The translations under genes were made by a program, and so were the position numbers. A model generated the notes under the pieces. That model was not told the DNA's origin. It searched no databases and saw nothing but the letters and a program-made list of their open reading frames with translations. Shown here piece after piece: positions 686 through 62,175 of a DNA stretch of 64,000 bases. Origin of the DNA: an uncultured Eubacteriaceae bacterium (lineage in GTDB: Bacteria > Bacillota > Clostridia > Lachnospirales > Lachnospiraceae); the NCBI GenBank assembly GCA_947066895.1, contig CAMTAA010000002.1, positions 12,786 through 76,785 on the forward strand, in the 5' to 3' direction. Numbering within the stretch: the first letter of the stretch is position 1; every line of letters begins with the position of its first letter.

Positions 686-716
686 CCCGGAGAGATCCGG
701 GGCTTTTGTGTTTTTT
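686..716 (+). terminator. Rho-independent terminator of the 203..664 gene
   Basis: cccgg-agagat-ccggg hairpin followed by gcttttgtgtttttt. Confidence 0.6.
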
Positions 717-878
717 AACCTATCAAGGAAGTCCCCTGCTTCTAAGCCGTGAAGGCGAAAGCGGTGGGTTGGGGGACTTCCTTGTGTCAGCTGGGGGAAA
801 GTCCCATCTGACAAGCAGCGATAGCAGCATAGGATTATGAGGAAGGAGCGGATTCCGAATTTCCTTATTTCCTTTGAC
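713..878 (+). repeat. Family C repeat, copy C1 (long-form stem with inserted hairpins and short-type tail)
   Basis: aacctatcaaggaagtcccc...gggggacttccttg. Inserted hairpins tgtcagctggg..tctgaca and agcagcgatagcagc. Tail ggaaggagcggattccgaatttcctt atttcctTTGACT. Ends 23 nt before the ATG of the next gene. Confidence 0.8.
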
Positions 879-901
879 TAAAAGAAATGGAGAAAAGCGG
901 T

Positions 902-1501
902 ATGGCTAAAGGAGAAACCATTTACGGGATTACTTACAGAGATCCGGTGGAAGCGAAAAAGGCAAAAAAAGAGTGGGAAGGGATACAGTATATTTTGTCG
1001 CAAAATGATATGGAAAATATGGAGGTTGCACTTGCTGTATATAACAAATTGGCAGAACGCAATGTATTGAAAACAGAAGTTGGGACAAAATTTTTAAGGG
1101 AATGGAAAGAGCGGTTGTTAGAGGCAAAAGAGATCGAGAATCAGAGAATATATGGATTTCAGTTAGAGGATGAACAGTGGCTGCGGGTAAGAGAGAGGGA
1201 CAGAGCGGAAAAAGAAGAACGAATTGCTCAGAAAAATAAAAAAAATACAAGTCTTTATTATCGGCAGAAATATTATCATGCCCTTATTTTAAATATTTTG
1301 TTGATTGCTGCTATATTGATTATGGCTTATATTACACTAAATAGTAATCATGTCAATATATTAAATTATGAGAATACATTGATTAATAAATATATATCAT
1401 GGGAAAAAGATTTACAGCAGAAAGAAGCAGAATTAAAAGAAAGGGAAAAAGAATTAAAGGCAAAAGAAAAGGAACTTTTCGGGAAAGATTCACAAAATTA
1501 A
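902..1501 (+). CDS. Hypothetical membrane-anchored coiled-coil protein (alternative start 887)
   Basis: ORF 887..1501. The ATG at 902 has GGAG 9-10 nt upstream. There is a hydrophobic segment (ALILNILLIAAILIMAYITL) and K/E-rich coiled-coil ends. Confidence 0.5.
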   Translation: MAKGETIYGITYRDPVEAKKAKKEWEGIQYILSQNDMENMEVALAVYNKLAERNVLKTEVGTKFLREWKERLLEAKEIENQRIYGFQLEDEQWLRVRERDRAEKEERIAQKNKKNTSLYYRQKYYHALILNILLIAAILIMAYITLNSNHVNILNYENTLINKYISWEKDLQQKEAELKEREKELKAKEKELFGKDSQN

Positions 1502-1570
1502 CATAACTTTATGATAATTTTTAAATAGAAAAAGATCCAGAGATTAGAACGAAAAGAAAGAAGGAATAAA

Positions 1571-59337: not shown

Positions 59338-59873
59338 GAGGATCTTCTTTAGAGGAATTGATTAACTACAGCAATGAAGTATATTTAGAGGAGGGGTTAG
59401 CTTTAATTCAAAAGATTCCGACTCCGATTAAACCGATTACCATTGACAAACAAACCCGCCATATTACGTTGGCTTATTTTGACCAGAAAAGTACCGTAGA
59501 TTATATTGGAGCAGTACAGGGAATTCCGATTTGTTTTGATGCAAAGGAGTGTGCAAAGGAAACGTTTCCACTTGCTAATCTGCATGAACATCAGGTTGCT
59601 TTTATGAGAGAATTTGAGCGGCAGGAGGGAATCGCTTTTTTGGTGATTTACTATACCGCAGTCGAGGAATGTTATTATATGCCGTTTGCGGATATGGAAC
59701 GGTTTTGGCTTCGGATGAAAGCCGGAGGAAGGAAAAGCTTTACCTATCAGGAGATCGACAAAACCTATCGTATCGGTCATAGAAGCAATGTTCCGATTCA
59801 CTATCTGGCAATGCTGCAAAAAGATCTGAACAGTCGAGAAAATCAGACAGACAAAAAGAGGGAGAAATTATGA
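59310..59873 (+). CDS. recU: Holliday junction resolvase RecU
   Basis: RecU core FDAKEC...ANLHEHQVAFM ... FLVIYYT. 187 aa. Overlaps the upstream gene by 28 nt and the downstream gene by 4 nt. Confidence 0.85.
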   Translation: MATWNSRGLRGSSLEELINYSNEVYLEEGLALIQKIPTPIKPITIDKQTRHITLAYFDQKSTVDYIGAVQGIPICFDAKECAKETFPLANLHEHQVAFMREFERQEGIAFLVIYYTAVEECYYMPFADMERFWLRMKAGGRKSFTYQEIDKTYRIGHRSNVPIHYLAMLQKDLNSRENQTDKKREKL

Positions 59874-61135
59874 AAAATCAGCTATTACATACTCCTGAGG
59901 GAGTCAGAGATATCTATAATCATGAATGTGCAGTAAAATTAGAATTAGAGAAACGTCTGCATCAAGTGATTCGTTCTCATGGATATCAGGATATACAGAC
60001 ACCAACCTTTGAATTTTTTGATATTTTTAATAAAGAGCGGGGTAGTGTGGTTTCCAATGAAATGTTTAAATTTATTGATCGGGAGGGCAATACTCTGGTG
60101 CTTCGCCCAGATTTAACCCCTTCTATTGCCCGCTGTGCAAGCAAATATTTTATGACAGAGGATATGCCGCTTCGTTTCTGTTATACCGGAAATACCTATA
60201 TTAATAATCACAGCTACCAAGGGCGGTTAAAAGAAACGACACAGATGGGCTGTGAGCTGATCGGAGATGAGACGACCGATGCAGCAGGCGAAATGATCGC
60301 TATTGTTATTAAATGTATGCTGGCGGCAGGATTGACCGAGTTTCAGGTGGAATTAGGAGAAGTGGGATTTTTTAACGGACTTTTAGAAGAAGCCGGACTG
60401 GATGAGGAAACGGAAACCGCACTTCGAGAATATATAGAAAATAAAAATTATTTTGGAATGGAAGAGATGCTGCTGCAAAAAGGAATAGAGGAAAAAATCA
60501 GAACTACCTTTTTAGAATTGTCCAATCTTTTCGGAACGGCGGACTGTCTAAAAGAAGCAAGAAAACTAACAGCAAATCCGACTTCTATGGCAGCGATTCT
60601 TCGCTTGGAAAAAATCTATCGGATTTTGGAATATTATGGATTAGAACAGTATGTTTCTTTTGAACTGGGAATGTTAGGACATTATAAATATTATACAGGA
60701 ATTATCTTTCGAGGGTATACCTATGGAACCGGAGAAGCAGTGGTAACTGGAGGACGTTATAATTCCTTACTGCAGCAGTTTGGGAAAGAATCGGCAGCAA
60801 TTGGATTTGCTATTCATGTCGATCAGCTGATGTTAGCTTTAACCAGACAAAAGATTACGATTGATACGGTATTGGTCGATTGTCTGGTAGTATTTGAACA
60901 TCAGGAGCGGCAGGCAGGAATTGTGCTTTCCGAATATTTTCGAAAACAGGGCAAGCTGGTAGAACAGACTAGAAGACGTACCCGCTATACGATTTCCGAT
61001 TATATTGCCTATGCAAAGCGGGAAAAGATGGCTCAGGTTTATTATATTGAAAATCGGCAGAAAGTGACCTGTACAGATATTCAGGAAGGAACCGAACAGA
61101 TCACTGCACTAGAAGAATTAATGAAAGAAAAATAG
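59870..61135 (+). CDS. HisRS-like class II aaRS paralog (HisZ-type regulatory subunit-like); no hisG nearby
   Basis: Motif 1/2-like region LRPDLTPSIARC (the HisZ-type LRPD.T variant, not the HisS-type LRPEGT). 421 aa. Confidence 0.6.
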   Translation: MKNQLLHTPEGVRDIYNHECAVKLELEKRLHQVIRSHGYQDIQTPTFEFFDIFNKERGSVVSNEMFKFIDREGNTLVLRPDLTPSIARCASKYFMTEDMPLRFCYTGNTYINNHSYQGRLKETTQMGCELIGDETTDAAGEMIAIVIKCMLAAGLTEFQVELGEVGFFNGLLEEAGLDEETETALREYIENKNYFGMEEMLLQKGIEEKIRTTFLELSNLFGTADCLKEARKLTANPTSMAAILRLEKIYRILEYYGLEQYVSFELGMLGHYKYYTGIIFRGYTYGTGEAVVTGGRYNSLLQQFGKESAAIGFAIHVDQLMLALTRQKITIDTVLVDCLVVFEHQERQAGIVLSEYFRKQGKLVEQTRRRTRYTISDYIAYAKREKMAQVYYIENRQKVTCTDIQEGTEQITALEELMKEK

Positions 61136-61157
61136 GGGCAAAAGAGGAGAATCAGCA

Positions 61158-62060
61158 ATGGCTTTTGATATTACAATGCTTGCAGGACCTGTGGTAGGGG
61201 CTGCAATTGGATATTTCACCAATTATATTGCAGTAAAGATGCTGTTTCGACCGTTGTATCCAGTCTATCTTGGAAAGTGGCAGCTTCCCTTTACTCCCGG
61301 AATTATTCCAAAAGGAAGGGAACGGCTGGCAAAAGCGGTGGGAGAAGCAGTAGGAGAAGTATTATTGACAAAGAAAGATTTTGAGCAGCTTTTATTATCA
61401 GAGCAGATGCAGGAAACAGTAAAAAATCAAATTTCGGTTTTTTATCAAAAAGGAATTACCAATCAGAATACAATAAAAGAATTTGCCAAAAAACAGACTT
61501 CAGAAGAAACCGTAGATCAGTTTTTGACAAAAACGATAGAAACCGTAGGAGAGCTTCTCTATCACAAAGTAACGGAGATGGACTTTGGAAGTATTGTAGG
61601 AGAAAAGGTAGCAGAAGTAATTCGGCAGAAAACACAGGGCACCTTACTTGCTATGATGTTAAATGATAAGATGATTGTCGGAATGGAACAGATGATAAGA
61701 AAAGAACTCAATCAATATCTAGAAGAACATGGCAAAGCATTAATAGAGGAAAAAACAAAAGAAGAAATCTATCGCTTTGCAGATAAAACCATTGCCGAAA
61801 CAGTGGAAGGTCTGCCTGTTACAGAAGAAAATTTAGAACAGCTGATGTTATCTCTCTATCGGCGGATTATTACAGACTATTTTGGCACTATAATGGAATA
61901 TATTCCGATTAGTCAGATTGTCGAGGAAAAAATTCGTACTATGGATGTAAAAGAGATTGAAAAACTGACCCTTTCCGTTATGGAAAAGGAGCTTCATTCC
62001 ATTATCAATTTGGGGGCTTTAATTGGACTAATTATCGGATGTATCAATCTATGCTTTTAA
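61158..62060 (+). CDS. DUF445/UPF0754-like membrane protein
   Basis: N-terminal TM AGPVVGAAIGYFTNYIAVKMLFRP ... GIIPKGRERLAKAVGE. C-terminal TM helix. Its stop codon TAA lies inside the first bases of repeat C7. Confidence 0.7.
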   Translation: MAFDITMLAGPVVGAAIGYFTNYIAVKMLFRPLYPVYLGKWQLPFTPGIIPKGRERLAKAVGEAVGEVLLTKKDFEQLLLSEQMQETVKNQISVFYQKGITNQNTIKEFAKKQTSEETVDQFLTKTIETVGELLYHKVTEMDFGSIVGEKVAEVIRQKTQGTLLAMMLNDKMIVGMEQMIRKELNQYLEEHGKALIEEKTKEEIYRFADKTIAETVEGLPVTEENLEQLMLSLYRRIITDYFGTIMEYIPISQIVEEKIRTMDVKEIEKLTLSVMEKELHSIINLGALIGLIIGCINLCF

Positions 62061-62175
62061 CCTTATCAAGGAAGTTCCCCGCTTCTAAGCCGCCAAGGCG
62101 AAAGTGGTGGGTTGGGACTTCCTTGATAAGGTTATGAGCAAGTAGCAAAGCGGATTGCGAATATCCGATTTGACT
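62055..62175 (+). repeat. Family C repeat, copy C7 (long form)
   Basis: aaccttatcaaggaagttccc ... gggacttccttgataaggtt. Tail agcaaagcggattgcgaatatccgatTTGACT, ending ~50 nt upstream of the MATE gene. Confidence 0.85.

Follow-up and report, generated by a model that had tools for sequence, protein, structure and literature searches.

Family C is a hairpin-rich repeat present in eight copies (C1 to C8) in a 64-kb stretch of DNA (hereafter the window) that belongs to a mouse-gut Lachnospiraceae species. It is a real, gene-less mobile element which has recently been active in this lineage, and with a probability of about 0.6 it is a non-autonomous element that behaves like the gene-less derivatives of IS200/IS605 insertion sequences (IS) known as PATEs. 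It falls within the known kinds of element and is not a new kind. Judged by sequence and covariation, its invariant 3' module is the core of the RNA motif Clostridiales-1, matched only below the Rfam threshold. Positions 5560-9603 of the window have 99% identity to a contig of the mouse-gut metagenome-assembled genome (MAG) MGBC128194, an uncultured Lachnospiraceae.

A preliminary description of the same DNA had presented the repeat as mobile, non-coding, modular and rich in hairpins. This was borne out, and insertion is proven by three independent empty sites, each of which corresponds to a clean insertion directly 3' of the pentamer TTTAA. At C5, a relative with a 95% identical pncB gene reads ...GATATTTTTTTAA followed by CAAAAATGCAAGTTTTACTATACT..., whereas the window reads ...GATAATTTTTTAA, then 161 nt (33348-33508), then CAAAAATGCAAGTTTTGCTATACT...; reduced to the junction, TTTTTTTAA is joined directly to CAAAAATGCAAG in the relative, and the 161 nt stand between TTTTTTAA and CAAAAATGCAAG in the window. 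The second site is a polymorphism within a species, in which a 115-nt copy follows TTTAA in metagenome contig L226, while contigs L225 and L227 have no copy; the inserted copy is on the + strand between two minus-strand genes, and so lies against both of them. The third is C7. In a syntenic relative with orthologues 80-91% identical to those of the window (hereafter the sister species), the DUF445 gene ends ...TTTTTTTAA directly followed by TAAAAAAG, with no element. As the sister gene ends in TTTAA without an element, the TAA is the native stop codon contained in the TTTAA target, and the earlier claim that C7 supplies a stop codon is not sustained; the DUF445 protein has 300 amino acids in all relatives.

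The sister species is also syntenic around C1 to C4 and has no family C copy there or elsewhere in the fetched loci, although its intergenic sequence at C1 and C6 is too diverged to draw exact boundaries. No copy was found in 80 pncB loci of other gut Lachnospiraceae (metagenomes, 654 kb), the identity of which was at most 77%, making them useless as empty sites. An empty site for C8 was sought by aligning the neighbouring repeat family, and this alignment was uninformative.

Conservation across copies starts exactly at TTTAA and stops at TTTGAC. TTTAA precedes P1, the closing stem of the element, in 35 of 41 unbiased parses, and the right end, always TTTGAC except for TTTGAT in C4, is a near-copy of the target; in 66% of copies a T comes next. 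Target-site duplication was not detected: no k-mer of 2-9 nt was duplicated at any boundary offset (maximum 14%, compared with 6% in shuffles). Tandem pairs adjoin directly (...TTTGAC followed by CCTATCAAGG...), as expected from a second insertion at the same surviving TTTAA. The ends of the element, CCTCATCAAGG... and ...ATCCGNTTTGAC, form no terminal inverted repeats in long forms, and an imperfect inverted match of 8-9 nt (TCAAGGAA ... TTCCTTTGA) occurs only in short forms of the C type.

Scanning a collection of species-representative genomes with the tail of the element gave at least 120 loci, and 133 copies outside the window were used for counts of flanks and strands. The locally G-rich strand carried 77% of these copies, and 84% where the local skew had a magnitude of at least 0.15. 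Co-orientation with either neighbouring gene was only 69%, about 31% of the copies being antisense to their neighbours. The downstream gene was on the G-rich strand for 76 of 96 elements on that strand and for 20 of 28 elements on the other; as these rates are nearly equal, the orientation of the element tracks the strand and not the gene. The copies had earlier been described as oriented toward downstream genes, which is explained by element and genes both preferring the G-rich strand (76/20 versus 20/8). In sequence, the G-rich strand corresponds to the lagging-strand template, the substrate targeted by IS200/IS605 transposases (PMC6006769).

The PATE-like reading is based on the lack of inverted repeats and of target duplication, the fixed 5-nt left motif, the target-like right end, the hairpins confined to one strand and the strand bias. 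PATEs, for example the ISGst PATEs of Geobacillus (PMC10055086) and those of haloarchaea, likewise have neither terminal inverted repeats nor target duplication, insert 3' of a short conserved motif, have a right end that resembles the target but differs from it, and are hairpin-rich, strand-specific and biased to the lagging-strand template, with a structured, RNA-like 3' portion. The fixed 4-5-nt target that a PATE keeps at its left flank without duplication is found here as TTTAA, in empty and filled sites alike, and the top strand is preferentially on the lagging-strand template when local GC skew is taken as proxy. TTTAA is a known target and transposon-associated motif (TAM) of IS605-type elements, one of which has the right end UUCAC compared with UUGAC here (PMC11043419), and PATEs carrying omega RNAs have been described (PMC10055086). 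The invariant GGTTA of family C pairs with TAACC, composed of the target TAA and the CC of the element, yet it is on the 3' side of the structure. In the mechanism proposed, a Y1 (HUH) transposase, the existence of which we purely infer, would mobilise family C in trans, acting at replication forks on single-stranded DNA. As RNA or single-stranded DNA, the conserved module would bind a protein whose gene lies elsewhere, and it might be the scaffold of a guide (omega) RNA with the 3' flank as guide.

Family C is present in the genomes of about 40 species of many Lachnospiraceae genera, the matches listed including Blautia, Lachnospira, Lacrimispora, Hespellia, Anaerocolumna, Jingyaoa, Suilimivivens, Lachnoclostridium, Lachnobacterium and unnamed Lachnospiraceae. 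The plasmid collection contained no match and IMG/VR contained one. The phage collection gave seven partial matches in unverified faecal 'Bacteriophage sp.' contigs, of which the one inspected was an ordinary long form. In the published literature no paper was matched by the sequence string of the element, and nothing relevant was found on a MITE (miniature inverted-repeat transposable element) of Lachnospiraceae.

The common plan consists of TTTAA, the closing stem P1 (CCNNNU / ANNNGG, extended by AA/UU), 0-4 internal hairpins, and a linker and tail, UGAGCAAGUAGCGAAGCGGAUUGCGAAUAUCCGNUUUGAC. This amounts to two parts, a variable four-way junction (P1 and hairpins H1-H3) and the invariant 3' module of roughly 45 nt that ends in TTTGAC, in short UGAGCAAGUAGC...GCGGAUUGCGAAU. 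RNAalifold on 23 long forms of different genera returned the four-way junction, with compensatory changes in 26 of 44 pairs. For the junction alone, 96.7% of cells were paired compared with 83% in shuffles, the observed value being reached by none of 500 shuffles; double changes were present in 25 of 38 pairs, and pairing was only 34-47% when the partners were slid by 1-3 columns. Of 42 unique cores, 37 folded better as the top strand than as the complement (107 G-U pairs compared with 27), and the advantage was kept in eight of nine copies on the G-poor strand. The better folding and the excess of G-U pairs indicate that the structure belongs to one strand, as RNA or single-stranded DNA, and is not a double-stranded palindrome.

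Internal hairpins have been lost or added freely, down to minimal forms of 43-46 nt with a single hairpin. An extra hairpin is nested in H1 or H2 in L098, L101, L107 and L119 (Lachnoclostridium MAG) and in L110 (Hespellia MAG), which suggests insertion or duplication as the source of the hairpin modules themselves. In MGYG-HGUT-00137 (L050, about 7790-7990, minus strand) a minimal 46-nt unit (AAAAATCAGGCAAGTAGCGAAGCGGATTGCGAATATCCGCTTTGAC) is repeated head-to-tail, so minimal forms can form arrays. Orphan 'heads' that lack a tail are copies that have decayed or been truncated, and not left ends of an IS. Three other identities were considered for the element or its parts and rejected. The AAC...GTT ends are suggestive of an integron attC site, but neither a cassette array nor intI is present and the surroundings of the copies are core genes; a mini open reading frame (ORF) in the linker, ATG-AGC-AAG-TAG, is not conserved; and the tail has no T-run and so is not an intrinsic terminator.

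A search against Rfam had been proposed in the preliminary description. The gathering scan of the window and a permissive scan of 9.4 kb gave no match on any copy. When single copies of three genera were searched permissively, the only recurring family was Clostridiales-1 (RF01699), below threshold, on the strand of the element and over the tail. Every conserved upper-case core letter was matched in the alignment (UGAG.A.G.AGC ... GCGGA.U.CGAAU), the core of the model being aUGAGcAuGaAGc-(hairpin)-gCGGAaUgCGAAu and that of the element UAUGAGCAAGUAGC-GAA-GCGGAUUGCGAAU. The same module is seen in the seed alignment of Clostridiales-1, where its 4-bp helix covaries (GCAA/UUGC, GCAU/AUGC, GAAA/UUUC, GGAA/UUCC). 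In family C this core helix changes from GCAA/UUGC to GGAA/UUCC, and the same pair is C:G in 52 copies, G:C in eight and U:G in four, compared with five mismatched. The invariant module also contains tandem G-A and loop-E-like internal loops common to Clostridiales-1. A match to group-II-D1D4-2 (24 bits) was a one-off below threshold, absent in other genera, and was dropped; the IS605-associated RNA families of Rfam gave no match to family C.

Clostridiales-1 (Weinberg et al. 2010, PMC2864571) thus shares with family C its core letters and the tandem-GA-flanked covarying 4-bp helix. Both are multi-stem junctions with many copies per genome, occur in gut Clostridiales/Lachnospiraceae, are not tied to 5' untranslated regions (UTRs) and have an uncharacterised function. 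Canonical copies occur in Lachnospiraceae MGYG-HGUT-00092, a genome that also holds family C copies. The two nevertheless differ: in family C the four-stem junction is present, but the core lies outside and 3' of it instead of forming one arm, and the inner core hairpin is reduced to GC-GAA-GC. Covariation in P1 favours AACC/GGTT over the outer stem of the core. Mobility of Clostridiales-1 is not reported in the text consulted. Family C is therefore a distinct relative that shares a module with Clostridiales-1, and by Rfam's criterion it is not a member.

Several points weigh against the PATE-like reading. Hairpins are found near both ends but are of different sequence, unlike the similar subterminal hairpins of IS608-type ends, and the minimal forms have only one; PATEs differ from family C in both respects, as they do from its modular gain and loss of hairpins down to 43 nt and from the conservation of its 3' module across many genera. 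No cognate autonomous IS, TnpA or TnpB of family C came to light among the loci examined: about 140 copies had no Y1 transposase or TnpB gene beside them, and none was found in the roughly 1 Mb of fetched loci. The 783 flanking ORFs clustered into housekeeping families only (ABC, two-component, MATE, LacI and similar), a phmmer search with Escherichia coli RayT found no relative in the six-frame ORFs of the loci, and two candidates from a pre-filter on Y1/TnpB motifs were rejected as a ferredoxin and an aldo-keto reductase. The 3' junction is uncertain by one base, C5 having an extra T, GC skew over 8-kb tiles is the only proxy for the direction of replication, and many of the copies analysed come from a single MAG. 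On the RNA side, the Clostridiales-1 scores in the three genera were 18.3, 21.2 and 17.2 bits compared with a gathering score of 48, and the canonical copies, starting with ATGATGATGCC.../GATGATGATACAAGG..., have neither the TTTAA flank nor the TTTGAC end.

Among the alternatives, the strongest is that family C is a functional structured RNA related to the small-RNA candidate Clostridiales-1, for which mobility would be secondary; it would be transcribed within UTRs or alone, and its module would bind a protein of the cell or of a mobile element. We hold this to be possible, though unlikely. The strong covariation across genera, the G-U asymmetry in favour of the top strand and the loops common to Clostridiales-1 all agree with it, whereas there is no conserved promoter upstream, conservation stops at TTTAA, about 31% of the copies are antisense to neighbouring genes, and hairpins are readily lost while minimal forms persist. 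In one version a TnpB-like nuclease or repressor would use the RNA as its omega-RNA scaffold, and the 3' flank of each copy would be the guide. The arrangement of a TAM-like TTTAA at 5' and a scaffold at 3' is as in IS605-type omega RNAs, but no tnpB gene is near any copy. As a tentative extension, with odds equally low, the module common to family C and Clostridiales-1 could be the protein-binding scaffold of an unrecognised RNA-guided, omega-RNA-like system of Lachnospiraceae. Hundreds of gene-less copies per genome would then each use their own 3' flank, beside a TTTAA motif, as guide, and a nuclease or repressor whose gene lies elsewhere would serve all of them in trans. If true, this would provide a role for Clostridiales-1, an orphan motif that is very abundant in gut metagenomes.

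It is improbable, more so than the structured RNA, that family C is an element resembling repetitive extragenic palindromes (REPs), served by a domesticated RAYT (TnpA-REP) that recognises as tag the GTAG two bases 5' of the hairpin AAGCGGAU...AUCCGCUU. This GTAG is at least 90% conserved and stands 2 nt upstream of a possible hairpin of 7-10 bp, and a CT dinucleotide is often found at the 3' boundary (TTTGAC followed by T, as given above). Some known REPs have a 2-nt spacer between GTAG and hairpin, and RAYTs act on a single strand (PMC8266576). REPs and the paired arrangements called BIMEs are, like family C, intergenic and of high copy number, with GTAG near a hairpin and a presumed single-strand HUH enzyme. 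Family C copies are, however, single or in direct tandem and not in inverted REP/iREP pairs, their units are larger and more modular, and the precise insertion of a 43-200-nt unit at a defined TTTAA site is transposon-like. The outer pairs of the hairpin vary without compensation (ATCCGA, ATCCGT, ATCCAC), while the alternative GCAA/UUGC helix covaries. Neither a RAYT nor any relative of the E. coli protein was found in the loci, the inverted pair in L012 encloses an ImmA/XRE-type module and not a RAYT, and Firmicutes are not mentioned in the survey of GTAG repeats that was consulted.

The preliminary description had further suggested a portable promoter or 5'-UTR cassette, which would persist because its terminal TTGACT drives downstream genes. 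All copies end in TTGAC or TTGAT, but for the family as a whole this is very unlikely. A -10-like hexamer (TATAAT-like with A2 and T6 and at least four of six matches, 16-18 nt after TTGACN) was found in 3-4% of the 133 distinct flanks, the same rate as at other offsets. Moreover, 31% of the copies face away from the next gene, orientation following the strand, the recent polymorphic insertion in L226 lies against both neighbours, and C6 lies inside an already transcribed riboswitch leader. The idea survives for a single copy. At C5, TTGACT, an 18-nt spacer and a TG-extended TATACT together make up the best promoter-like site of the region, and the relative without C5 has the same -10 and downstream leader behind a weak TTTAAC, so that insertion has exchanged a -35 box with three of six matches for one with five of six. 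C5 thus plausibly supplies a better -35 to the pre-existing -10 of pncB, as a by-product of a right end that mimics the target. The right end regenerates TTGAC where TTTAA stood, for which reason insertion before an existing -10 could produce a stronger promoter; effects on neighbouring genes would be incidental.

Least probable of all is a classical MITE derived from an IS with a DDE transposase: small size, lack of coding sequence, intergenic multi-copy occurrence and the imperfect inverted repeat of the C-type short forms would suit it, but the lack of target duplication, also at the three empty sites, is a strong argument against it, and long forms without terminal inverted repeats, asymmetric ends and strand-specific structure also speak against it, so 'MITE-like' does not apply in its strict sense. 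Correia elements of Neisseria can create promoters at their ends, but have terminal inverted repeats and TA duplications, unlike family C, and are unrelated in sequence. The pneumococcal BOX elements are also modular (boxA, boxB repeated n times, boxC), strongly folding intergenic repeats without sequence relationship to family C; neither a mobilising mechanism nor TTTAA targeting is known for them.

All eight copies in the window were confirmed at the positions first reported, and there were no others. The stem arm AACCTCATCAAGGAAGTCCC matched eight times with at most three mismatches and the tail GCGGATTSCGAATWTCC eight times with at most two, numbers reached by none of 100 dinucleotide-preserving shuffles in either case, and nhmmer with a tail profile or a full-length profile returned exactly these eight copies. 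The first coordinates included the 5' TTTAA, while the element proper, as given in Table 1, extends from the base after TTTAA to TTTGAC. The division into long and short forms, with extra hairpins in C1 and C5, proved correct on reading the intervals. The 'perfect 20-bp stem' does exist, as P1 and H1 stacked on each other, and is perfect or has a single G-T in C2, C3 and C7. The distance from the 3' tail to the next + strand gene, given earlier as 12-70 nt, was only roughly right: it is 9-88 nt to the next ORF in five of the seven + strand copies, but C3 is 150 nt and C4 more than 200 nt away. The copies in the window average about one per 8 kb. Its G+C content is 40.6% and its GC skew, (G-C)/(G+C), is very strong at +0.30, with 92% of the coding sequence on the + strand.

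Table 1 Family C copies in the window, the promoter-like site at C5 and canonical Clostridiales-1 copies
Feature	Position	Strand	TTTAA target	Form and remarks
C1	719-878	+	714-718	Long form, H1+H2+H3, C-type tail (GGAA/UUCC core helix); no copy at the orthologous site in the sister species
C2	5498-5611	+	5493-5497	114-nt form, P1+H1 plus tail; TTTAA within an HTH_26-like ORF remnant (MSFSYKPLWKLLIDYDMSKKDL then insertion point)
C3	7739-7846	+	7734-7738	108-nt form; H1 has a 6-nt deletion when compared with the same-species MAG copy; right border of a restriction-modification island missing from the sister species
C4	9692-9793	+	9687-9691	Degenerate long form, H1 lost, H2/H3 decayed; tail end TTTGAT
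C5	33348-33508	+	33343-33347	Full 161-nt form: P1, H1, H2, H3, linker, core, TTTGACT; boundaries set by empty site (TTTAA then C...) in a relative
C6	35995-36037	+	35990-35994	43-nt short form, C-type tail; in thiM leader, 3' of the riboswitch and its terminator
C7	62061-62174	+	62056-62060	114-nt form; inserted directly after native TAA stop of DUF445 gene, which is part of the target
C8	24445-24487	-	24492-24488 (read on minus strand)	43-nt short form; sole minus-strand copy
Hybrid promoter-like site	33503-33532	+		-35 TTGACT from C5 end, 18-nt spacer, TG-extended -10 TATACT
Canonical Clostridiales-1 RNA	L075 3985-4146	+		115 bits
Canonical Clostridiales-1 RNA	L099 1191-1360	-		126 bits

The claim that C2 disrupts a gene stood in part. 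The copy follows the ...KKDL codons of an HTH_26-like N-terminal fragment, from which about 20 residues of the domain are missing, and disruption is likely, but the Pfam match is weak (E = 0.11) and the case is not a clean one. This remnant is part of an island (5028-7732) with an N6/N4 DNA methylase (5664-6662) and a minus-strand ORF of 293 amino acids without Pfam match, which is probably a restriction enzyme. The island is missing from the syntenic sister species, whose flanking genes are only 150 nt apart, and it is bracketed by C2 and C3 in direct orientation.

Upstream of C6, the thiamine pyrophosphate (TPP) riboswitch aptamer (35588-35698) and its terminator (35700-35730) are 340 nt from thiM, compared with about 100 nt in the sister species, because repeats including C6 have been inserted in the leader, which is about 250 nt shorter in the sister species. 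One of these neighbours belongs to a third repeat family of about 95 nt (TTTTTATG...CTACTCGAT; 24263-24357, 35731-35825, 42506-42600), the copies of which are 67-71% identical and are found just 3' of terminator-like hairpins, one beside C6. A second and larger repeat family has at least nine copies in the 64 kb, at 24570-24745, about 40196-40360 and 51805-51969 on the + strand and, in the opposite orientation, at 3831-4110, 20285-20556, 30406-30709, 35046-35358, 39705-40017 and 51072-51333. Only one of these reaches the Rfam threshold, as a TwoAYGGAY RNA (68 bits), and the others are 72-89% identical; this orphan motif behaves here as a dispersed repeat, like Clostridiales-1. Intergenic tandem arrays adjoin the dispersed repeats at 20105-20284, 35346-35527, 40027-40161 and 51468-51734, with periods of about 35, 65, 45 and 39 nt. 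The intergenic regions of this genome are unusually rich in repeats. Upstream of C5, positions 30789-33227 encode a protein of 812 amino acids with major-vault-protein shoulder and repeat domains (PF11978, PF17795), unusual in bacteria, and the gene is conserved beside pncB in close relatives (L220).

Contigs start 25-30 nt from a family C copy in L003, L022, L028, L052, L094, L095 and L114 and end at a copy in L004, L037 and L072, and several contigs of MGBC128194 also end inside the repeat. Family C is a frequent cause of assembly breaks in these Lachnospiraceae genomes, and it fragments metagenome assemblies, many MAG contigs ending inside copies.

Lachnospiraceae are dominant gut commensals, and family C, at its density in the window, is a major shaper of intergenic regions. 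As C5 illustrates, an element with a right end that mimics its target can upgrade the -35 box of a promoter on insertion. The PATE-like reading predicts a TTTAA target, a strand bias and a Y1 transposase that acts in trans and/or a partner that binds RNA. Clostridiales-1 has been an orphan RNA motif for 15 years, and a Clostridiales-1-type core on an IS200/IS605-like element would link this motif to the biology of mobile elements.

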